Of a DNA stretch of 11,899 nt, positions 1 to 11,899 are shown piece by piece. Each line of letters begins with the position of its first letter. Position 1 is the first letter of the stretch. The notes beneath the pieces are model-generated. The model worked only from the letters and a program-made list of their open reading frames with translations. It did no database searches and was not told the origin of the DNA. The DNA lies in the NCBI GenBank assembly GCA_020352555.1, contig CP070680.1, positions 558,091 to 569,989 of the forward strand, written 5' to 3'. This DNA comes from a candidate division WOR-3 bacterium (GTDB taxonomy: Bacteria > Hydrothermota > Tepidihabitantia > Tepidihabitantales > Tepidihabitantaceae). The position numbers were made by a program, and so were the translations under genes.

Positions 1-232
1 CCATGCCATCGAGCTGAAGGCAAGGCAGGTGCTGAACTCGGCAGATGTGCCGAGCATGCTGTATGTCTTCTATCTCAATTATGCCCGTGAGCTGCACAGG
101 CTGAGCAAGCGGCTTTCCGGGCCTTCGCTTGTGCGCGAGGCGAACGTGCTGCTTGAGAAGTGGGTGGCAAGGACGCTTGAGCGCACGGCGCTTGAACGTA
201 TCCGGGACGAGGCGTTCTCGGTCGGGACCTAG
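1..232 (+). CDS. 3' end of a gene of unknown function (open to window start; stop TAG 230..232)
   Basis: Frame 2 is open from position 2 (HAIELKARQVLNSADV...) with no stop until TAG at 230..232. The track's Met at 29 is internal. The translated sequence has no recognisable motif. Confidence 0.45.
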   Translation, partial: HAIELKARQVLNSADVPSMLYVFYLNYARELHRLSKRLSGPSLVREANVLLEKWVARTLERTALERIRDEAFSVGT

Positions 233-3200
233 CGCTGAATCACGACCTTCTGAGTAGCTGCGAAGCCCTCGGCTTCGAGCTTCACCACATACACCCCGGC
301 GCTGAGGTGTCTGAGGTCAAGCGGCACCACCCCTCGGTGAGCTGGCAGGGCCAGCTCTCTTGTCTCCGCCACACGTCCTGCCACGTCATAGAAGGTCAGG
401 CAGCAGGTCTGGGCTGCAGGCATCACGTAGCACAGGCGGCAGCGCCGACCAGCCGCCACACTCGGCACCAGCTCTGCCTGTATTCGCCCAGGCAGAAGCC
501 CTTTCTCCTTCGCGATTCCCGGCCTGCCTGCGCCCTGAAAATACACGTCGTCGAGCATGAACGAGCCGTGGATGGCCCTGTTGGTCCGATGCCTGAAACC
601 GATGTAGATGGTGTCGCCGTCGTGCGTGTCCAGGCTGCGCCAGACCACTTGCCAGTCATGACCCGCAGTATCGGACGCGTAGAGCCGTTCCAGCCTGTTG
701 TCCGGATCCTGCCTGTCCATTGTCCAGACCTCGTACAGCAGGCCGGAATCCGCCCGGCAGACGAATCCGACAGTATCTCCGGTCAATGCGCTCGGCACAG
801 CAGCATCAGTGAACAACCAGTCGTCCATTCCTCCAACTACCCACTCGACCGCTGACGAAGCACATGACCGGCCGGTATGCGAGGCCGTGCTGTCGCGCTT
901 CCAGGTCTGACTTCCTCTGTCGTTGTTCACTGCCACCCAGCCGGAAGGCGGAAAAAGCGTGTCCTCAAAGTCCTCGATCCAGTACGTGCCGGTCGGAAAA
1001 ACAAGGGCGCTGACCGTGGCCGTATCGTTGTAGGGATTGTCGTCACAGGCACAGGCGGCGAGTGAGAATAGGTGCATTTGGTAGCCCTGTAGAGGTGGAA
1101 CCAGGAAGTACATCTCGACCGGGATTGTATCGCCCGGCCTGACTTCCGGGACCCTGGCCGAATCGAGAGGTGTGAGCAGGTCGAGGAGCGCTATGACGTC
1201 TACGTCCGTGGCAGCCGAGTCACCTGTGTTCAAGAGGAAGCCGGATAGGACATTTGTGTCGCCTGCGACTGCAGGATAGCGAACCGACTCCGAATCGCAC
1301 AGCACCGCGACATCAATGACCCCGGACGGCTCGACATAGTCAACCTTCAGGTAGGGACGATTGGGAGAACTACGCCCGTAGATGAGGCCGGCGGGCCACG
1401 AGCTTACATCGAAGCCCGTCACGAACCACCCCCTGCCAATGTCGCCCTGCAGAGCGGAATCCCCTTCAGGTGTGAATATCGTGCCGTTCCAGCCTGCCCG
1501 GGGGCAATCGACTCCGGGACTGACGCTGCGCGACCCGAGGTGGGCCAAGTACAGCTCCTCGCTGTCGGCAACAACAGGGTCTACCCGGATGTTGGCTACC
1601 CTGATACTTGTCAGGTCAGAGTCGGGCAACAGGAAGAAGCACAACTCGCAGAATAGGATTTCCGACCCGAATCTCAGCGGATTGAGGTCGAACTTCGCCC
1701 ACCCGTAGCTCAACGAGTTCCTATCATACATGACTATGTCCCCGTCCTCCTTCGGCCCGATGGCGCCGCCATACCAACGTTTCTGCGACCCGGTCCAGAA
1801 GGGCTGAATCTGAGCAATGAGGAAGACACTGTCCGGGTGAGTCTCCAGCACGCGCACTGGGATGGCGGCGGCGTTGTTGTCCGGATTGTAGTCCTCCGGG
1901 AGCATGGTCGAGCACTTCGCCACAAACCGTCCCAGAGAATCCGGCACCCATTTCCTGAAATTGACCGTGCAGGCTCGACCCCCGTCCAGCAGGACGGAGG
2001 TATCGTTGCTGTAGGCCTCTCCAATCGTGAAGCGAATCGGGAGTGTCCAGGGATGTGTCCCGTAGTTGTGCACGCGGGCCGACGGGACGAATGTGTCGCC
2101 AACGACCCCAAACCCGCGTGGCGTGAGAATTGCCGAACATCCAGCATCGGCCCGATGAACCTCGACGGTACAGACAACGCAGTCATTTCCAGGCCGTTCG
2201 TCTCCGGAGAGCATGGTCGAGCACCTGACTGCAAGAGTGCCGAGTTCGGCAACCATCCAGGGCGGAAATGAGACCGTGTCCCGCTCACCGCCGTCGAGGA
2301 ACAGCGTGGTGTCTGAGAGATAGCGGGTGCCGATGCTGAATCTGACCGGGACGGTCTGAGGTTCCAGGCCCCGGTTTGCCACAACCGCCCTGGGGACGAC
2401 CACCGCGCCCGAATCGATTCGTCCGAAGGGCGACAGAAGCCGGATGACTCCCGCATCTCTTTGCACCATGCTGTAGAGCAGAACCAGCTCTGGTGTAGAG
2501 TCGTCGCTGGCATCTCCATGCCCAGAGTGGCATCGTATGCCGAGCGATATCGTATCGGCCGGCAGCGTTTCCAGCAGTCGGTGAGCTTTGACAAGGTTTC
2601 GGTGAACCCAGCCGAGGTTATCCTGAAGCGTATCGCCGAGAGGACGGCCTTCATACAGAGCCCACCACAGCGGTTCCGGTTCGGTTTCAACGGGGTCACA
2701 TTCGATCAGCACGATTGTGGTCGTCGGCAGCCCCTGATGCCACCAGAGGTGGTACCGCAGGCCGGCCCAATCGATCCGGGCGTCGGTCGGGACAGACGTA
2801 AGGGCAAATGATAGGTAGCCGTGATAGAACCACCCGAAGGGTTCCAGGTTACCGGGCTCCTTCCAGAACTCCCAGTCCCAGTTGCAGGCAGTGCCAATGA
2901 CATGGGCTGGCACCGTAGTGCCCTCCGCTGCCTCGACTGAGTCAAGCAACCTGTCATTGCCCGGTCGCTCGTCGAGGTCAAGCATCGTTGAGCAACTGAC
3001 CACGTAGCGTCCCGAGTCCATAGGCACCCACGGTGGGAACGAGACGACTGTGGTTTCCCCCGCAGCCACGGAGGCCGTCGTTTCTGCCTCGTACATACCG
3101 CCTATGGACATCCGCACCGGGAATGTCTCGGCCACCTCTCCATAGTTCACAACCTGGGCTCGTGGAACGATAGGGAAACCAGTGGCTGTCTTACCGGTCG

Positions 3201-3363
3201 GTCTGAGGATCGCGGCTGTTCCGACATCCCGCAGCAAGGTTTCCACCCGAATCGAATAGACATCCGCATCGTCTCTGAACTCGCGGTCCTGCGCGAGCAA
3301 CGCCGCCAAGGCCATGATTGTGACCAGGAGCGTGCCGGTGGTCCGGCGTGAATGGTGGTTCAT
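229..3363 (-). CDS. Large T9SS-secreted surface protein with an N-terminal signal peptide, three CARDB-like repeats, an unassigned central region, a choice-of-anchor-J / cleaved-adhesin-like domain and a Por_Secre_tail C-terminal sorting domain
   Basis: The 1044-aa ORF starts MNHHSRRTTGTLLVTIMALAALLAQD, which reads as a signal peptide. Three ~100-aa repeats end in D-ERPGND / PEDYNPDNN motifs (VNYGEVAETFPVRMSIGG..., VANRGLEPQTVPVRFSIGT..., VHNYGTHPWTLPIRFTIGE...), typical of CARDB. The region YWIEDFEDTLFPPSGWVAVNNDRGSQTW...IYIGFRHRT...FMLDDVYF matches the MAM-like choice-of-anchor-J / Cleaved_Adhesin pattern. The C-terminus LTFYDVAGRVAETRELALP...LSAGVYVVKLEAEGFAATQKVVIQR matches the T9SS CTD consensus. 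Stop TAG is on the minus strand at 229..231. Confidence 0.85.
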   Translation of the reverse strand: MNHHSRRTTGTLLVTIMALAALLAQDREFRDDADVYSIRVETLLRDVGTAAILRPTGKTATGFPIVPRAQVVNYGEVAETFPVRMSIGGMYEAETTASVAAGETTVVSFPPWVPMDSGRYVVSCSTMLDLDERPGNDRLLDSVEAAEGTTVPAHVIGTACNWDWEFWKEPGNLEPFGWFYHGYLSFALTSVPTDARIDWAGLRYHLWWHQGLPTTTIVLIECDPVETEPEPLWWALYEGRPLGDTLQDNLGWVHRNLVKAHRLLETLPADTISLGIRCHSGHGDASDDSTPELVLLYSMVQRDAGVIRLLSPFGRIDSGAVVVPRAVVANRGLEPQTVPVRFSIGTRYLSDTTLFLDGGERDTVSFPPWMVAELGTLAVRCSTMLSGDERPGNDCVVCTVEVHRADAGCSAILTPRGFGVVGDTFVPSARVHNYGTHPWTLPIRFTIGEAYSNDTSVLLDGGRACTVNFRKWVPDSLGRFVAKCSTMLPEDYNPDNNAAAIPVRVLETHPDSVFLIAQIQPFWTGSQKRWYGGAIGPKEDGDIVMYDRNSLSYGWAKFDLNPLRFGSEILFCELCFFLLPDSDLTSIRVANIRVDPVVADSEELYLAHLGSRSVSPGVDCPRAGWNGTIFTPEGDSALQGDIGRGWFVTGFDVSSWPAGLIYGRSSPNRPYLKVDYVEPSGVIDVAVLCDSESVRYPAVAGDTNVLSGFLLNTGDSAATDVDVIALLDLLTPLDSARVPEVRPGDTIPVEMYFLVPPLQGYQMHLFSLAACACDDNPYNDTATVSALVFPTGTYWIEDFEDTLFPPSGWVAVNNDRGSQTWKRDSTASHTGRSCASSAVEWVVGGMDDWLFTDAAVPSALTGDTVGFVCRADSGLLYEVWTMDRQDPDNRLERLYASDTAGHDWQVVWRSLDTHDGDTIYIGFRHRTNRAIHGSFMLDDVYFQGAGRPGIAKEKGLLPGRIQAELVPSVAAGRRCRLCYVMPAAQTCCLTFYDVAGRVAETRELALPAHRGVVPLDLRHLSAGVYVVKLEAEGFAATQKVVIQR
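232..500 (-). other. Region encoding the T9SS (Por_Secre_tail-type) C-terminal sorting domain of the 229..3363 protein
   Basis: The last ~90 aa contain ...YDVAGRV.....G.....L..LSAGVYVVKL.A.G......KVVIQR, which is the CTD beta-sandwich signature. The domain boundary is approximate. Confidence 0.6.
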
Positions 3364-3518: not shown

Positions 3519-4226
3519 TCAGTGCAGGACTACCCAGGCGTCGGCCGGCATTCCGGGTTTGAACACCCGGTCGGTGTTGGGCAAAGAGACCTTGAGCCGG
3601 CAGACCGAGTTGACGCGCTCTTCGCGGGTCTGGATGTCCTTGGGTGTGAACTCGGCCTGCTCAGAGATGAAAGTGATGCTGCCTGAAAAGTCGCGGTCCG
3701 GATACGCGTCGACCTTAACGAGCACCGAGTCGCCAAGCCTGACCTGGCCGAGCAGGCGCTCGGGCAGGTAGACTGTAAGCCAGGTCTGGTCCAGGTCAGT
3801 GATGGTAGCTACGGTCTGGCCAGGGTTGACGGTCTCGCCCGGCCGGAAAACCAGGGTGGAGACCACACCAGGGACCGGTGCGAGCACGGTGCAGTCATTG
3901 AGCCGGGCAAGGGCAAGCTCGTACTGGGCCCGGGCTGCTGAGGCGGCAGTTGCTGCTGCATCGGACGCAGACTTGGCAGCTTGGGATTCGGCCCGTGCCT
4001 TGTCAAGGTCCTGGGCTGACAGGTCGCCGTTTCTGGCAAGGGCGCTGAGCCGGTTGAGGGTTGCTGAAGCCAGCTCGCTCCGGGCCTGGGCAGCGTTCTG
4101 TGCTGCAATGGCTGACTGCCACTGGCTGCGCGCTGCGCTGGCAGCCAGTGAGTAGTTGGCAGTGTCGAGCTTGGCAAATGTCGGGGACATAATACGACTT
4201 ATCTGCGCCGAGAAGATGCAGCGCAT
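3519..4226 (-). CDS. HlyD-family membrane-fusion / periplasmic adaptor protein, N-terminally truncated fragment (possible pseudogene)
   Basis: The Ala/Gln-rich coiled-coil hairpin (AKLDTANYSLAASAARSQWQSAIAAQNAAQ...AQYELALARL) is followed by VLAPVPGVVSTLVFRPGETVNPGQTVATITDLDQTWLTVYLPERLLGQVRLGDSVLVKVDAYPDRDFSGSITFIS...KPGMPADAWVVL, which is the adaptor lipoyl/beta-barrel signature. There is no TM anchor or first lipoyl half-domain. No in-frame start exists between Met4226 and the stop of the upstream SPFH gene. The fragment uses a TGA stop. Confidence 0.6.
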   Translation of the reverse strand: MRCIFSAQISRIMSPTFAKLDTANYSLAASAARSQWQSAIAAQNAAQARSELASATLNRLSALARNGDLSAQDLDKARAESQAAKSASDAAATAASAARAQYELALARLNDCTVLAPVPGVVSTLVFRPGETVNPGQTVATITDLDQTWLTVYLPERLLGQVRLGDSVLVKVDAYPDRDFSGSITFISEQAEFTPKDIQTREERVNSVCRLKVSLPNTDRVFKPGMPADAWVVLH

Positions 4227-4355
4227 TCCGCTTTCTGCGCTGCGGACCGAGGAGGGACAGGATTGGCCGAAGCTGGTGCTGGTGAAGTAGGTCGGGACTC
4301 GTGCAAGAGGCAGGGCGGCAAGTGCCGCCCTGCCTCGCTCTGGGTGGAGTGCTGA

Positions 4356-5267
4356 CTAGCGGTTGACGTTGAGCATCGGGATGAGGTCCTGGTCGAACGG
4401 CATGACGACAAAGGTGGTGTTCTGGCTCTCGGCAACCCTCTTGAGCGTCTCGACGTAGTACCAGGTCAGGTAGTTTGACGTCAGCGAGCCGGCAATCGTC
4501 CTGTTGGCTGCCGCGATGCCGCCGGCCTCTATTTCCTTGCGCTCGGCTTCGCGCTTCTCCTTGGCCAGGGTGAACTCCATCTTCTGGGCGTTCTGGTCCT
4601 CGGCCAGCTTCTGCTCGATGGCGGTCATGACGATGTCGGGCAGCTTGACCCGGCGCAGCAGGACCCGCTCGCGGATGACGCCCTTGTCGGCGAATGCGAC
4701 ATCCATCAGCGAATCGACCTGGACGGTGTAGGCGGTACGGCCGGCAGAGGAGTAGAGCTCGGAGGCGGTGAAGCGCGACGCGGCGTCGCGCAGCGCGGTG
4801 CGGATCGAAGGCCGGACGATCTTCTCGACGTAGTTGGGTCCGATGTTCTTGTAGACCCAGCTCGCCATCTTTTCGTCGAGCCGGTACCAGGTGGTCACGT
4901 CGAGCTGGACGGTGAGACCGTCGGACGCGAGTGCGTCGATGGCGTCGTCGCCTTTGATCTGGCCTTCTTCGCGCATCGACGACATGGTGTAGGCGTTGGT
5001 GCGCACGTCCATGAGCACGACGTTGACGATCGGCAGCACGACGTTGAGCCCGCTCTGCATCTGGTTCTGGACCCGTCCGAGCAGCACCGGCACCCCGGCG
5101 TGGCCTGGCGGCACGATGCGGAAGAACGAGATGCCGAACAGGATGCCGACGATGACGATGGCGATGATGCCGACGCGCTTGGCGTAGAGCCGGGCCTTGC
5201 CGCTCTGCCGGATGGCCACGTAGGCGATAATGGCGGCGATGGTGAGGGCGATGACTACTCCGAACAT
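4356..5267 (-). CDS. SPFH / band-7 (prohibitin/stomatin/HflKC-like) membrane protein
   Basis: An N-terminal hydrophobic anchor is followed by RIVPPGHAGVPVLLGRVQNQ...GLNVVLPIV..V..MDVRTN...DGLTVQLDVTTWYRL...YVEKIVRPSIRTALRDAASRFTASELYSS... and a coiled-coil KLAEDQNAQKMEFTLAKEKREAERKEIEAGG, typical of SPFH proteins. SD GGAGGT lies 4 nt before the ATG. Stop is TAG. Confidence 0.8.
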   Translation of the reverse strand: MFGVVIALTIAAIIAYVAIRQSGKARLYAKRVGIIAIVIVGILFGISFFRIVPPGHAGVPVLLGRVQNQMQSGLNVVLPIVNVVLMDVRTNAYTMSSMREEGQIKGDDAIDALASDGLTVQLDVTTWYRLDEKMASWVYKNIGPNYVEKIVRPSIRTALRDAASRFTASELYSSAGRTAYTVQVDSLMDVAFADKGVIRERVLLRRVKLPDIVMTAIEQKLAEDQNAQKMEFTLAKEKREAERKEIEAGGIAAANRTIAGSLTSNYLTWYYVETLKRVAESQNTTFVVMPFDQDLIPMLNVNR

Positions 5268-7844: not shown

Positions 7845-7995
7845 GGCGTTAGTGTACCTCGATTAGGCCGTGTGCCAGGGCTGTCATAAGTCCGTCACCC
7901 ATCTTCGACAGAGTATGTCTCCGGTGCCACTTAGTCAAGTGCGTGAAGTGAATGGCGCCCCTGGTGTCGAGCCGGCGGGCAGATGTTGCCCGAGC

Positions 7996-9999
7996 ATGGT
8001 CGGCGCTGTAGAATGGTCACCCTCAGGAGGCCCTCTGAAATACCGATTGCTGACAGTCGCCTGCAGTGCCCTGCTTCCGGTCCTCGCGCCTGCCCGCGCC
8101 GGAGTGGACAACCTTGCCCTGCTCGGCCACAACGAGGTCAACCGCAACCACCTGATGGACGTGGAAATCTCGGGCGATCGGGCGTTCGTCTGCAACGGTC
8201 TAGGCTCCGGCCTCGAACTCTACGACATCTCCGATCCGGGCAACCCGAACCGGACCTGGACCGGCGGCCCGGACTGCTGGCGGGCCCGCGCCTACGGCGA
8301 CTCCGTACTCTTCATGTTCTGCCGCCTCGACGGCACGGTCCGAGTCGGCATCACCGGCACGCCCGCCAGCCGCGGCAACTACAACCCGCCCGGCAACCGC
8401 GAGGCGCTCGAGGGCGGCGCGCTGGTTGGGGACACGCTCTACGCCGCCGCGCACCAGAACGGCATCTACTTCATCGACTGCTCGAGTCCGACGACAGTCA
8501 CCAAGGTCGGCGCGATCTCGCTGGCCCCGACCGCCGCGGCATGGAATGTCGAGGCGCGCGACAGTTTCCTGTTCGTCGCGAACGGCCGACACGGCCTGGC
8601 CGTCATCGGGCTGGCCGGCGCACCCCGCCGAATCGTTGACCTGGCACTGCCGGGGCTGGCCAACGACATTGTGCTCGACGGTGCCGTCGCCGCGATCTCG
8701 CTCGGCGCCGGCGGGTTCGCGACCGTGGACGTATCCGACCCGTACGCCCCGGTCCTGCTCGACGTCGCGGAGACCGGCGGCTCGTGCTGGGGGCTCGGCA
8801 TCACCGGCCACCTCGTCGTGTCCGGCTCGTGGCGCGTGCTCGAACTCTTCGACATCTCGGACCCGGCGAACATCAGGCCGGCCGGCTGGGACAATTCCCA
8901 GACCTGGGCCCACGGCGCCGACATCCGCGCCGACTCGCTGGTCGCCATCGCCGACTGGCGCGGCATGTCGTGCTACCGGGTCGGACCTGACCCGGGCCCG
9001 GACATCGACGTCTGCCCAGAGTATGTCGACTTCGGCGCGGTCTCGAGTGCGGTAGAGACGACGGTCACGGTCCGCAACACCGGCGCCTCCGCGCTCGTCG
9101 TCGGCTCGGTCACGACGCCGGGCGGCATCGACGTCGACCCGGCGTCCTTCACGATTTCGGCCGGCGACTCGCTCAGCGTCGAAGTCAGTGCGGCCGGGAC
9201 CGGCCGGGTCAGCTCAAACATCGTCTTCAACTGCAATGACCCGTTCTACCCGCAGTATCGTGTCGAGGTGCACAAGAACAACTCCGCCTTTCCGCAGTAC
9301 GGTTCGCTGGCGCCCGACTTCACGCTCCTGGGCAGCGACGGCCGTTCGCACACGCTCAGCGATTACCGGGGCCGGGTCGTCTACCTGATGTTCGGCGCCT
9401 CGTGGTGACCGCTCTGCGGGCCGCAGGCTGCGGCCGCGGACGGCTCGATGTTCGAACGCTGGGACAGCTCGCAGGTTGTGATGTTCGCCGTCGGGGCCGA
9501 CAGCCACCAACTCAGTGAGTTCACAGACGTGTTCGGGTGGCGCTCGGTCGGGCTCATCGATCCGTCGAGTTCGCTCTACAGCTCCTGGCGCGTGCCTCAG
9601 CCGCTGGCGCCATACCCGCAGGACTACATCGTCGACCAGGACGGTGTCGTCCGCTACTGGTCGGATCAGTACGATGCCCAGGCGGTGATTCAGACGGTGG
9701 ACCGGCTGCTGGCTACCGGCGTCGGTGAGCGTGCCGGCGGCCCTGACCAGATGCAGCGGCTGCGGCTGACGTTGTCACCGAACCCGGCAGCCGGTGCGGT
9801 TCGGCTGCAGGCGCTCGGTCTGGCCGGCGGTGGAGGTACTGTTGAAGTCTTGGATGTTTCCGGAGCGGTGCTTGACCGGTTCGAGGTCGGTACCGAGAAT
9901 CCATTCACGTGGAGGCCCGAGGCGCCGGCCGGGGTGTACTATTTCCGGCTGGTGTCGGGCGACGACGAAGTTGCGACGCCGTCAGTGCTGGTGCGCTGA
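7996..9999 (+). CDS. T9SS-sorted selenoprotein: signal peptide + LVIVD-repeat beta-propeller + Ig-like (choice-of-anchor-D-like) domain + TlpA-like thioredoxin-fold redoxin with a U-x-x-C active site (TGA 9406..9408 read as selenocysteine) + Por_Secre_tail CTD
   Basis: Track ORFs 7870..9408 and 9448..9999 are in the same frame, with no other stop between them. The TGA lies in ...YRGRVVYLMFGASW-U-PLCG..., which is the WCxxC position of TlpA/ResA-like redoxins. The rest of the fold continues after it (VVMFAVGADSHQ...GLIDPSSSLYSSWRVP...PQDYIVDQDGVVRY). The signal peptide is KYRLLTVACSALLPVLAPARA. Repeated LVIVD motifs include GLELYDISDPGNP, GIYFIDCSSP, GFATVDVSDPYAP and VLELFDISDPANI. The CTD is LSPNPAAGAVRLQ...TVEVLDVSGAVL...PAGVYYFRLVSGDDEVATPSVLVR. 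The start ATG 7996 is uncertain (alternatives below). Confidence 0.7.
9406..9408 (+). other. In-frame UGA recoded as selenocysteine (UxxC redox centre)
   Basis: It falls at the first Cys position of the thioredoxin-fold CxxC motif, and the downstream sequence continues the same domain in frame. TGA is used as a true stop by the HlyD fragment, the glycosyltransferase and this gene's own terminus, so this is not code-wide reassignment. Confidence 0.65.
9414..9439 (+). promoter_or_regulatory. Candidate bacterial SECIS-like hairpin immediately downstream of the UGA
   Basis: CUGC(9414..9417)-G bulge-GGCCGC(9419..9424)-loop AGGCU(9425..9429)-GCGGCC(9430..9435)-GCGG(9436..9439) gives a ~10-bp stem with U·G wobble and one bulge, and a 5-nt apical loop containing GG at +18/+19 from the UGA. 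It was folded by eye only, and the region is GC-rich enough to allow alternative folds. Confidence 0.35.
9757..9996 (+). other. Region encoding the T9SS C-terminal sorting domain of the selenoprotein
   Basis: RLRLTLSPNPAAGAVRLQALGL...TVEVLDVSGAVLDRFEVG...PAGVYYFRLVSGDDEVATPSVLVR* matches the Por_Secre_tail consensus. The boundary is approximate. Confidence 0.6.
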
Positions 10000-10029
10000 C
10001 CACATCGTGTCAAAGACAGGAGGCAGAAC

Positions 10030-11899
10030 TTGAGACTGACCGCACTGCTGATGCTGAGCCTGGTTGCGCTTTCTGTGGGGACAGCCCGCATACCGGGTCC
10101 AGAGGGGCATGAGACCAAGTGGTTCCTGCCGTTGCCGGATCCGCCTCCGGTATTCGCGGAGTCCACCCACGAATACGACACGCGGTTCTTCAGGCTGGAT
10201 GTCAACCTGCCGATGACTTCGGGCGCGATGGACGCCCATGCAGGGATATGGATAGTCAGCGAAGTCGCGGGCCTGGACACAGCGGTTTTCGATTTCCGCA
10301 ACCTGGTGTGCGACTCGGTGAAGCTGAACGATACGATGCTCGGTTTCTCGACGACCTACCTCCAGCTCATGGTGGTGTTCGATGAGCCGCTTGCCTCGGG
10401 TGACTCGGTTCTCCTCGACGTCTTCTACCACCGTACAGCGGGAACGCAGAATCGGGGATTCTACTGGTACGAGCAGGATCCGCCGCGCAACCGGCTGCAC
10501 ACGGTCTGCTACACGCTGACCCAACCCGAGAACGCCCGGTACTGGTTTCCCTGCTGGGACCACCCGTGGGACAAGGCGGAGCGGGGCTGCCAGGTCAACA
10601 TAACGGTGCCGGATTCGTTCACCGCCTGTGCCAACGGCCTGCTCGACAGCACAACCTCGAACAGCGACGGCACCAAGACGTTCTGGTGGACCCACCGGTA
10701 TCCGATCTCGTCCTATCTGGTCAACTTCGGAGCCAGCGTGTTCTCGGTCTGGACCCAGTGGTCGTACCTGCAGAACGGCGATTCGGTTCCGACGGTCAAC
10801 TACATCTGGCCCGAGGACTCGGCGGTTTCTTTGAGCTCGTTCCGGAACGTGCCCAACATGCTCGAGTTCTTCTCTGACTCCATTCGGTTCGGCTTGTACC
10901 CGTTTCCGGAAGAGAAGTACGGCCATCTGGCCGTGTACCCGTTCGGGGCCGGCGGCATGGAACACCAGACGATGACGACCGTGCACCGGCAATGGGTGAC
11001 GCGAGGGTCCGAGTCCGGGATCGCGCACGAGCTCGCCCACATGTGGTACGGTGACTTCCTGACCTGCTTCATCTGGGCCGACATCTGGCTCAACGAGGGC
11101 GGGGCAAGCTACCTGGACCCGCTTTGGATGGAGCATTTCTACGGGCATTCGCGTTTCCTCCAGGACATGGAGGACTACCGGCGGTACTTCCTTCGCTCGG
11201 ATTCGGTGGACCGGCACCCGATATACGACCCGGGTTTGGGCCGGCTGTTTGACTACGGACATACCTACTGCAAGGCGGCGTGGGTGAACCACATGCTGCG
11301 CTATGTCGAGGGTGACACTGTCTTCGACCAGCCCGGGATCTGGTGGCAGACGGAGAGGGCGTACCTGGACAGCTTCGCGTACGGAACCGCGACGACCGAG
11401 GACCGCAAGCGTATCCACGAAGCCCACACCGGACTGGAGCTTGACTGGTTCTTCGACGATTGGGTGTACATGGCCGGGTTCCCCAACTACTCGGTGAACT
11501 GGTTCGGCCGTCACACGACGGACGGCTGGGAAGTCGTAGTCGACATCGGTCAGAACAACGGGGCCCAGGCGCCGGAGTGCTTTCACATGCCGGTTGAGCT
11601 CCTCGTCGGTACCGCGGCAGGAGATACTCTGTTCCACTTCGGCATCACCCAGAACCCCCAGCGCAGCGTGTTCCCGGTTTCGGCAGAGCCGAACAGCGTC
11701 GTGTTCGACCCGGGCAAGTGGATACTGAGCAAGCACACAATCACCAGCGGAATTGAGAATGAGCTCGACCCCGGGGCCGGTGTGAGCCGTCCGACGCTGC
11801 ACTCGGCAGCACCCAACCCGGCTCCGAATGCAGCGATTGTCCGTTTCAGCCTGCCCAATGCCCAGGACGTGAGCGTCCTGGTCTACGACGCGACCGGCC
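10030..11899 (+). CDS. M1-family zinc metallopeptidase (aminopeptidase N-like) with a signal peptide and the start of a T9SS CTD; 3'-partial (runs off the window); TTG start
   Basis: Not in the ORF track because no stop is reached. My own translation from TTG 10030 is open to the window end: (M)RLTALLMLSLVALSVGTARIP (signal peptide) ... ARYWFPCWDHPWDKAERGCQVNITVP ... GAGGMEHQTMTT (GAMEN-type exopeptidase motif) ... HELAHMWYGD (HEXXH) ... WLNEGGASY (third Zn ligand) ... SAAPNPAPNAAIVRFSLPNAQDVSVLVYDATG (CTD onset). A perfect SD AGGAGG at 10018..10023 lies 6 nt before the TTG. The in-frame TGA at 9997..9999 directly upstream leaves TTG as the first possible start. Confidence 0.8.
   Translation, partial: MRLTALLMLSLVALSVGTARIPGPEGHETKWFLPLPDPPPVFAESTHEYDTRFFRLDVNLPMTSGAMDAHAGIWIVSEVAGLDTAVFDFRNLVCDSVKLNDTMLGFSTTYLQLMVVFDEPLASGDSVLLDVFYHRTAGTQNRGFYWYEQDPPRNRLHTVCYTLTQPENARYWFPCWDHPWDKAERGCQVNITVPDSFTACANGLLDSTTSNSDGTKTFWWTHRYPISSYLVNFGASVFSVWTQWSYLQNGDSVPTVNYIWPEDSAVSLSSFRNVPNMLEFFSDSIRFGLYPFPEEKYGHLAVYPFGAGGMEHQTMTTVHRQWVTRGSESGIAHELAHMWYGDFLTCFIWADIWLNEGGASYLDPLWMEHFYGHSRFLQDMEDYRRYFLRSDSVDRHPIYDPGLGRLFDYGHTYCKAAWVNHMLRYVEGDTVFDQPGIWWQTERAYLDSFAYGTATTEDRKRIHEAHTGLELDWFFDDWVYMAGFPNYSVNWFGRHTTDGWEVVVDIGQNNGAQAPECFHMPVELLVGTAAGDTLFHFGITQNPQRSVFPVSAEPNSVVFDPGKWILSKHTITSGIENELDPGAGVSRPTLHSAAPNPAPNAAIVRFSLPNAQDVSVLVYDATG

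Follow-up and report, generated by a model that had tools for sequence, protein, structure and literature searches.

A probable selenocysteine codon in the redoxin domain of a predicted secreted multidomain protein from a candidate division WOR-3 bacterium

When two open reading frames (ORFs) share a frame and are parted by a single TGA, is that codon the end of one gene or an amino acid in the middle of another, and if the latter, what kind of protein is being made? The question is raised by a locus in an 11,899-nucleotide stretch of DNA (hereafter the window) from a candidate division WOR-3 bacterium (assembly GCA_020352555.1, contig CP070680.1, positions 558,091 to 569,989 of the forward strand), where the ORFs 7870..9408 and 9448..9999 would together encode a protein with a thioredoxin-fold redoxin domain that neither of them holds in full. 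Our analysis suggests that the two are fragments of one gene and that the UGA between them, at 9406-9408, is very probably decoded as selenocysteine (Sec, U in the motifs below), at the position that the nucleophilic cysteine takes in related redoxins.

The window sequence, the ORF table and the translation of 7870..9999 agree that both ORFs lie in one frame, and that the gap between them consists of TGA 9406-9408 followed by 39 nt (9409..9447, 13 sense codons), as a preliminary description of the window, made from its letters and ORFs, had stated. The read-through peptide is ...RGRVVYLMFGASW*PLCGPQAAAADGSMFERW..., ending at TGA 9997-9999, with YRGRVVYLMFGASW just before the in-frame TGA and PLCGPQAAAADGSMFERW just after it. 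The C-terminal ORF is 100% identical to the database protein JSU73_02605. Besides the start adopted here, alternative in-frame starts at 7915 and 8047 are conceivable. The parts of the gene on which the argument turns are as follows.

7996 to 9999, + strand: a single predicted selenoprotein gene of 667 codons plus the terminal TGA; its ATG start at 7996 matches protein P0001, and the databases hold it as a 470-aa N-fragment and a 183-aa C-fragment.
9406 to 9408, + strand: in-frame TGA, the predicted selenocysteine codon, residue 471, in the motif W-U-P-L-C; TGA in 67/67 loci.
9415 to 9417, + strand: TGC, the codon of Cys474, resolving Cys of the U-x-x-C motif; kept in all orthologs but L016 and L021.
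9448 to 9450, + strand: codon of the internal Met485, wrongly taken as the start of a downstream "ORF"; in every locus the protein sequence of the preceding 13 codons is conserved.

What the TGA interrupts becomes clear from domain searches, which were run on the joined protein with the TGA replaced by Cys. Residues 436-554 are matched by the Pfam family AhpC-TSA (PF00578), nearly the whole of whose profile is covered (positions 2-123 of 124; E 5.8e-15, 55.8 bits, cutoff 26), and Redoxin (PF08534) matches with 38.5 bits (E 1.3e-9, cutoff 26.6); both matches span the TGA at residue 471. When the protein was compared with PDB chains by phmmer, "FGASW[U]PLC" aligned with "FWASWCSIC" of the pneumococcal structures 4evm and 4hqs, and ResA and TlpA were also matched. 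This alignment places the TGA on the nucleophilic N-terminal Cys of a W-C-x-x-C redoxin, and thus bears out the earlier proposal that it falls on the first Cys of a TlpA-like WCxxC motif. The Cys-based relatives in question (TlpA/ResA/Etrx-type redoxins, 26-36% identity) carry their nucleophilic Cys at the TGA position, a correspondence that holds at the level of the superfamily only.

The fate of this codon among relatives carries most of the argument. DNA of relatives was taken from species-representative genomes and metagenomes, in which 67 loci carry the motif, and although the motif pattern would also have accepted Cys at the tested codon, TGA occupies it in 67/67 loci, with TAA, TAG or Cys in none. 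The loci cover at least six phyla (WOR-3, Stahlbacteria, Eisenbacteria, Gemmatimonadota, Calditrichaeota and metagenome-assembled genomes (MAGs) labelled Phycisphaerales), at identities down to 43%, and the gene was found in 30 or more species. Beyond the TGA the frame stays open for 190-215 codons in the relatives and continues into the rest of the redoxin, with the conserved peptide U-P-[LIV]-C-x-x-Q-A-A-x-D ... Y-R-V-P-x-P-E-A-P-Y-P-Q-D-Y-x-I-D-x-x-G-x-V-R-Y-W, to which the 13 codons annotated as intergenic belong in all loci. The same break can be seen from the side of the protein databases, where about 115 orthologs of about 455-470 residues, at 99%-41% identity, cover the first two thirds of the joined query and share a common C-terminus: about 112 of them end in ...F-G-x-x-W. 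When 1.84 billion cluster representatives were scanned exhaustively with HMMER, 12/12 orthologous representatives that match end to end stopped at the last profile position, and none ran on into a redoxin with Cys. Even in distant subfamilies (L036, L037, L041, L049 and L119, with 24-29% identity in the propeller), TGA stands at the same position of the motif.

The codon is also secure at the source. An independent assembly 17 single-nucleotide polymorphisms apart (L159) keeps TGG-TGA-CCG, and a 99%-identical Joint Genome Institute (JGI) protein, P0001, keeps the TGA. A paralog in the source MAG itself (L160, Logan SRR14739665, TGA at 2643; proteins P0046 and P0131), with 57-60% identity, has the same TGG-TGA-CCG and hairpin, and its annotation, too, is split, into JSU73_09400 and a "T9SS type A sorting domain-containing protein". 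A sequencing error at 9406..9408, which the preliminary description had named as something that would undo its reading, is excluded by these three. Two loci depart from the motif in an instructive manner. In L016 (6378) and L021 (6327), both from Eisenbacteria-type MAGs, the sequence reads F-G-A-C-W-U-P-V-V, where the Cys at +3 is lost and a Cys at -2 is gained, turning U-x-x-C into C-x-U. No other locus shows either of the two changes, a pattern that fits a need for a Sec-Cys redox pair.

If the UGA is recoded as in other bacteria, the RNA just downstream of it should resemble a bacterial selenocysteine insertion sequence (SECIS). The window holds such a hairpin directly 3' of the codon.

9419 to 9435, + strand: core of the bacterial SECIS-like hairpin, a 7-bp stem (9419-9425 with 9429-9435) and the loop GGC (9426-9428), which lies 17 nt after the UGA.
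9409 to 9443, + strand: extended form of the hairpin in the window; its lower-stem pairs are only partly conserved in relatives.

According to a published consensus, a bacterial SECIS (bSECIS) has 3-9 nt in its loop, the first or second of which is a G, 4-16 bp in its upper stem, a UGA-to-loop distance of 16-37 nt and a minimum free energy (MFE) of at most -7.5 kcal/mol (PMC13188914), and all 64 distinct sequences of the family conform to it. In 61/64 the stem keeps its register over 5 or more contiguous bp; in the other three, whose stem has 5-7 bp, the loop of 3-5 nt is shifted. The apical loop lies 17 nt from the UGA in the window and in nearly all homologs, its sequence being GGC in 45, GUC in 7, AGG in 6, GUU in 4 and GGU in 2 (n=64), and family members have MFE values between -8.4 and -26.5 kcal/mol, that of the window being -24.4. 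The distant subfamilies listed above have a hairpin of another sequence in the same place.

Conservation of the pairing goes beyond that of the sequence. RNAalifold, applied to an ungapped alignment of 32 loci, returned the 7-bp stem and 3-nt loop with compensatory double changes at four pairs. Among 60 distinct sequences, the pair +11:+27 is GC in 33 and CG in 18, +13:+25 is CG in 46, UG in 10 and UA in 4, and +14:+24 is CG in 47 and UA in 12, with three pairs invariant. For a 12-bp version of the stem, 85% of the cells are paired, compared with 26-55% when the partner column is slid, and none of 500 shuffles reaches the observed covariation score. Synonymous sites inside the stem are frozen as well, codon +5 being CCG in 32/32 and codon +7 GCU in 46/46, and the third position of codon +8 is only ever G or A, in keeping with its pairing partner, whereas four-fold degenerate third positions elsewhere show 1.3-1.9 bits of entropy. 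Covariation and frozen sites together show selection on RNA structure, whatever the ligand of that structure.

The product of the joined gene is a protein of 667 residues in five parts, namely a signal peptide, an LVIVD beta-propeller, an Ig-like domain, the U-x-x-C redoxin and a type IX secretion system (T9SS) sorting tail.

7996 to 8100, + strand: probable signal peptide, residues 1-35 (...LLPVLAPARA|G), read from the sequence; the cleavage site is a prediction.
8107 to 8985, + strand: LVIVD-repeat beta-propeller, residues ~38-330 (Pfam PF08309; AlphaFold2 model; Foldseek matches to WD40-like propellers).
8998 to 9240, + strand: Ig-like domain of the HYDIN/VesB/choice-of-anchor D type, residues 335-415 (PF22544, E 4e-9; NF012200).
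9301 to 9657, + strand: TlpA/ResA-like redoxin with thioredoxin fold, residues 436-554, split in the annotation by the TGA (PF00578, PF08534, PDB alignments).
9607 to 9627, + strand: the loop A-P-Y-P-Q-D-Y, residues 538-544, probably the cis-Pro loop; it aligns with "RSYPTQAF" of 4evm, and P-Y-P is nearly invariant in the family.
9775 to 9996, + strand: T9SS type A C-terminal sorting domain (TIGR04183); the C-fragment of the paralog is named a T9SS sorting domain protein by NCBI.

The two ends of the protein deserve comment, as the predicted location depends on them. At the N-terminus, a hydrophobic helix at residues 13-29 has a low predicted local distance difference test (pLDDT) score in the AlphaFold2 model, and the N-termini of orthologs are alike. 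At the C-terminus, TIGR04183, whose cutoff is 23 bits, is borderline in the window protein: it gives 23.2 bits when only the C-terminal part is scanned and 22.1 bits for the full protein. It matches 16/23 ortholog C-fragments. The model of the N-fragment has a pLDDT of 87.6, and its Foldseek neighbours are generic WD40-like propellers that give no hint of function. As to names, the NCBIfam scan of the joined protein found no model that covers the selenoprotein family. A match to "OS_HP2 family (seleno)protein", with 16 bits against a cutoff of 100 and on the Ig-like region, was dismissed as noise. We also considered and rejected an identity as ResA or TlpA proper, given the secreted multidomain setting, the lack of conserved neighbours and NCBIfam scores of 36.6 bits (ResA, cutoff 170) and 19.9 bits (TlpA, cutoff 230). 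With scores so far under the cutoffs, the redoxin is related to both proteins and should carry neither name.

Put together, these parts suggest the following course of events. The ribosome would read UGA 9406-9408 as Sec, the hairpin that starts about 11 nt past the UGA acting as a bacterial SECIS (core 9419-9435, with its G-containing 3-nt loop) that presumably recruits SelB with Sec-tRNA(Sec) to the codon. The product, whose propeller would be a 7-bladed-type LVIVD propeller, could then be exported by the Sec translocon and subsequently by the type IX system across the outer membrane, and with such export signals and domains the redoxin would work at the cell surface or outside the cell. There, by analogy with the mechanism of TlpA, ResA and thioredoxin, the U471 selenolate may attack a substrate disulfide or another oxidised sulfur species, forming a selenenylsulfide that Cys474 would resolve into an intramolecular Se-S bond, with the propeller and Ig domains probably binding the substrate or a partner. 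From its sequence, then, the redoxin-bearing product is probably a cell-surface selenol/thiol oxidoreductase.

How do other explanations of the TGA compare with decoding as Sec? It could be a genuine stop, in which case the locus would hold two genes, one for an LVIVD/Ig protein with a redoxin stub and one for a small protein starting at ATG 9448. All pipelines annotated two genes, and there is indeed an ATG 13 codons past the TGA, but a genuine stop would break a single thioredoxin fold in two at the active site, and the 13 "intergenic" codons, which include the one for the partner Cys of CxxC, are conserved as protein in every locus. Gene callers choose differing downstream starts among orthologs, giving C-fragments of 137-193 aa, and the stop at this codon is always TGA, yet the same genomes end their genes in TAG, TAA and TGA. 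We therefore give the two-gene explanation hardly any weight. The preliminary description had held the in-frame TGA to be far likelier Sec than a real stop, and had asked whether homologs end at the equivalent position; the invariant TGA, the conserved frame that runs on behind it and the covarying hairpin now speak for its view. Smaller still, and close to nil, is the chance of a code in which TGA has a sense meaning (code 4 or 25), of a lesion in a pseudogene or of a faulty assembly. Some metagenome gene callers did give W at this codon in three proteins of a second, marine subfamily (P0136, P0139 and P0145), translating under code 4. Yet TGA is a true terminator here: it ends 20 of 63 orthologous genes (TAG ends 30 and TAA 13), exactly at the end of the conserved T9SS tail, and in the window it terminates the HlyD fragment, the glycosyltransferase and the selenoprotein gene itself, the three stops from which a TGA-sense code had been called unlikely at the outset (the Band7, MFS and 1044-aa ORFs end at TAG). 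With TGA ending both the gene and a third of its orthologs, a TGA-sense code is ruled out. The 63% GC of the window also counts against this group of explanations. Against a lesion or an error stands the presence of the TGA in independent assemblies and the paralog, and 67/67 loci cannot all be lesions. A subtler explanation is that the UGA is read through but not as Sec, the hairpin being the recoding signal and the amino acid being either Cys, brought in by a SelB-like factor on a tRNA(Cys) that resembles tRNA-Sec and has the anticodon UCA, or Trp, by near-cognate suppression. Mukai et al. are said to have found UGA recoded to Cys by SelC-like tRNAs in some uncultured bacteria. A conserved TGA, a hairpin and an open frame cannot tell which amino acid goes in, and no Sec machinery was seen in the window and fetched loci, at about 10 kb per genome. 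However, the codon at the nucleophilic Cys of a CxxC redoxin is a classic Sec site, and the hairpin fits the SelB-type bSECIS model. If Cys were meant, TGC or TGT would be expected in some of the 67 loci over six phyla, and none has it; Trp in place of the CxxC nucleophile would inactivate the domain. We consider insertion of another amino acid quite improbable.

A different kind of alternative leaves decoding as Sec intact and changes the chemistry. Instead of a protein-disulfide reductase, the protein would be a peroxiredoxin-like peroxide scavenger, or else it would carry or reduce sulfur, polysulfide or a metalloid. Its best Pfam match is AhpC/TSA and there are weak matches to thiol peroxidase models, two members have C-x-U in place of U-x-x-C, and no reductant partner is encoded nearby. 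Conversely, the motif is of the W-C-x-x-C type, the best structural relatives are the disulfide reductases TlpA, ResA and Etrx, and the T-x-x-U motif used by peroxiredoxin selenoproteins (PMC13188914) is absent here. Such chemistry is unlikely on this evidence, though it deserves serious thought.

Some of our results weigh against reading the gene as one for a surface-exposed selenoprotein. Neither tRNA-Sec nor SelA, SelB or SelD was found in the window or in about 1 Mb of fetched loci, which cover only about 10 kb per genome: ARAGORN reported no tRNA-Sec on 36 loci, and tblastn with approximate E. coli SelA, SelB and SelD sequences gave no match in any fetched locus, as was to be expected at that coverage. 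Neither the database searches nor the HMMER scan returned a Cys-form ortholog, so that the Sec/Cys pairing seen in many selenoprotein families has a counterpart here in the superfamily alone. Taken by itself, the hairpin of the window shows no excess stability over shuffled versions of its sequence, which has 63% GC (z = -0.22), and the SECIS case therefore rests on comparison among relatives. Surface location and chemistry, finally, are deduced from the domains. Weighing all this, we still regard Sec at residue 471 as very probable. The wider claim, that the gene belongs to a previously undescribed and obligately Sec-containing family of cell-surface or extracellular oxidoreductases, carried as T9SS cargo or by a dockerin tail in the marine sister subfamily and spread over WOR-3, Eisenbacteria, Gemmatimonadota, Calditrichaeota, Marinimicrobia and other uncultured lineages, seems to us plausible but somewhat short of probable.

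The family varies in copy number and in its C-terminal modules. Two paralogs occur per MAG in some cases, L011 and L014 coming from one Phycisphaerales-labelled MAG and L020 and L032 from another MAG. The T9SS tail is swapped for other C-terminal modules in the Phycisphaerales-labelled, Gemmatimonadota and Calditrichaeota versions; loci with such a swap are L011, L012, L023 and L025. The marine sister subfamily (L041:6384 and L049:5494; P0136, P0139, P0145, P0149 and P0205) has the motif FF(A/S)Px-U-PVCSPELSD and ends in a dockerin (PF00404) or a T9SS tail.

Directly downstream of some orthologs, in two close relatives of the window organism, lies what may be a second selenoprotein, a repeat protein of about 488 aa with a C-U motif (L002:6794-8257, TGA 7142; L081:3155-4468, TGA 3407; both on the + strand). 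The two copies are 48% identical and conserve an in-frame TGA in the context ...FVI(W/Y)(H/Q)EGC-TGA-FTRDVKGVRVTP(D/E)G..., followed by the conserved hairpin GGGCGUC-CGGGU-GACGCCC, whose loop lies 24 nt past the TGA. Repeat proteins homologous to this candidate are present in L005, L087, L016, L021 and L091.

The gene's surroundings offer no conserved partner: clustering of gene neighbourhoods over 39 loci gave none, the apparent clusters being antisense ORFs or shared T9SS tails. In the window, a secreted M1-family aminopeptidase with a signal peptide (10030..11899, + strand) begins 30 nt past the selenoprotein stop, with AGGAGG upstream of its TTG start; it runs off the window end and is for this reason absent from the ORF list. 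A 606-aa ORF on the opposite strand (9982..11802) has no family match and is probably spurious. The 1044-aa ORF at 229..3363 (- strand) has no Pfam match, but NCBIfam models find in it a T9SS sorting tail besides a choice-of-anchor J domain, which makes it a second T9SS cargo in the window and a piece of indirect evidence for the secretion machinery in the genome. The HlyD/RND-adaptor ORF at 3519..4226 (- strand, 235 aa) covers profile positions 59-241 of 322 and looks N-terminally short, and a 78-aa ORF (4199..4435, - strand) overlaps its start, so that a frameshift or a truncated gene is possible. ARAGORN called an 87-nt tRNA-Pro (tgg) at 9813..9899 (+ strand), inside the coding region of the T9SS tail; we take it to be very likely a false positive, since an Rfam scan of the window at E <= 10 shows no tRNA there, and the scan returned nothing relevant elsewhere in the window.

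What follows for annotation is immediate. Hundreds of family entries are split into two "hypothetical proteins", and joining them restores a complete redoxin domain and shows the use of selenocysteine in little-known phyla. The type IX secretion tail on a selenoprotein suggests that uncultured bacteria of sediment and groundwater probably carry out selenium chemistry on their cell surface. If the wider claim is true, this would be the first selenoprotein cargo of a type IX secretion system and a selenol catalyst outside the cell with no obvious electron supply, which might, for example, open disulfide-stabilised extracellular proteins for co-encoded secreted peptidases or act on environmental sulfur species. 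Given that Sec is kept in every member over deep divergence, the family lends itself cleanly to the question of what Sec can do and Cys cannot. It also provides at least 60 natural SECIS variants in a conserved coding context, useful for modelling SECIS recognition beyond Proteobacteria and Firmicutes.

How does the gene relate to systems already known? Thioredoxin-fold selenoproteins with U-x-x-C are well documented, and the redoxin domain here fits that kind. With the known TlpA-like U-x-x-C selenoprotein families, compared by their description, it shares PF00578, Sec as the nucleophile and a bacterial SECIS directly after the UGA. Those families are catalogued under one redoxin domain model, whereas the redoxin here is the fourth module of a 667-residue secreted protein, beside a propeller, an Ig-like domain and a T9SS tail, and no Cys-form orthologs were found in our searches; nearly all selenoenzymes have Cys homologs that are more abundant (PMC13188914). 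With TlpA, ResA, CcmG (DsbE) and Streptococcus pneumoniae Etrx (PDB 1jfu, 1st9, 4evm and 4hqs; E 1e-12 to 2e-3) it has in common the fold, the W-C-x-x-C motif, the cis-Pro loop and an extracytoplasmic setting. These proteins, however, are Cys-based, face the periplasm or cell wall as membrane-anchored proteins or lipoproteins, and depend on CcdA or DsbD for recharging, while the window protein has Sec, no such anchor and no CcdA/DsbD neighbour.

A Cys-based precedent for T9SS cargo with reductase activity exists in HBP35 of Porphyromonas gingivalis, which is exported by the T9SS and anchored at the surface, and whose recombinant form reduces insulin (PMC2907840; PMC3120885). HBP35 likewise combines a thioredoxin-type CxxC domain with a T9SS C-terminal domain, a likeness of domain make-up; it differs in being Cys-based, in binding hemin and in having no propeller. 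The pattern by which the present family came to light has a parallel in SaoL, SaoB and SaoT (Haft & Gwadz, 10.1101/2022.07.06.499078), for which all entries stop at one aligned residue, the stop is always UGA and the frame resumes. Some of the selenoproteins in that study are likewise exposed outside the cytoplasm, though SaoL, SaoB and SaoT have unrelated folds, motifs and gene contexts. Our literature searches found nothing pertinent that ties selenoproteins to LVIVD proteins, WOR-3 to selenocysteine or selenocysteine to type IX secretion. Neither WOR-3 nor Gemmatimonadota appears in BSepDB or in a 2026 review; nor does the review speak of secretion, T9SS or propeller architecture, and the term "multi-domain" is missing from BSepDB. 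Judged by its sequence, what seems new is the multidomain secreted architecture, the targeting by T9SS or dockerin and the complete absence of Cys-form orthologs, in a gene that is, on solid grounds, one for a selenoprotein of a well-known kind which annotation has so far missed.

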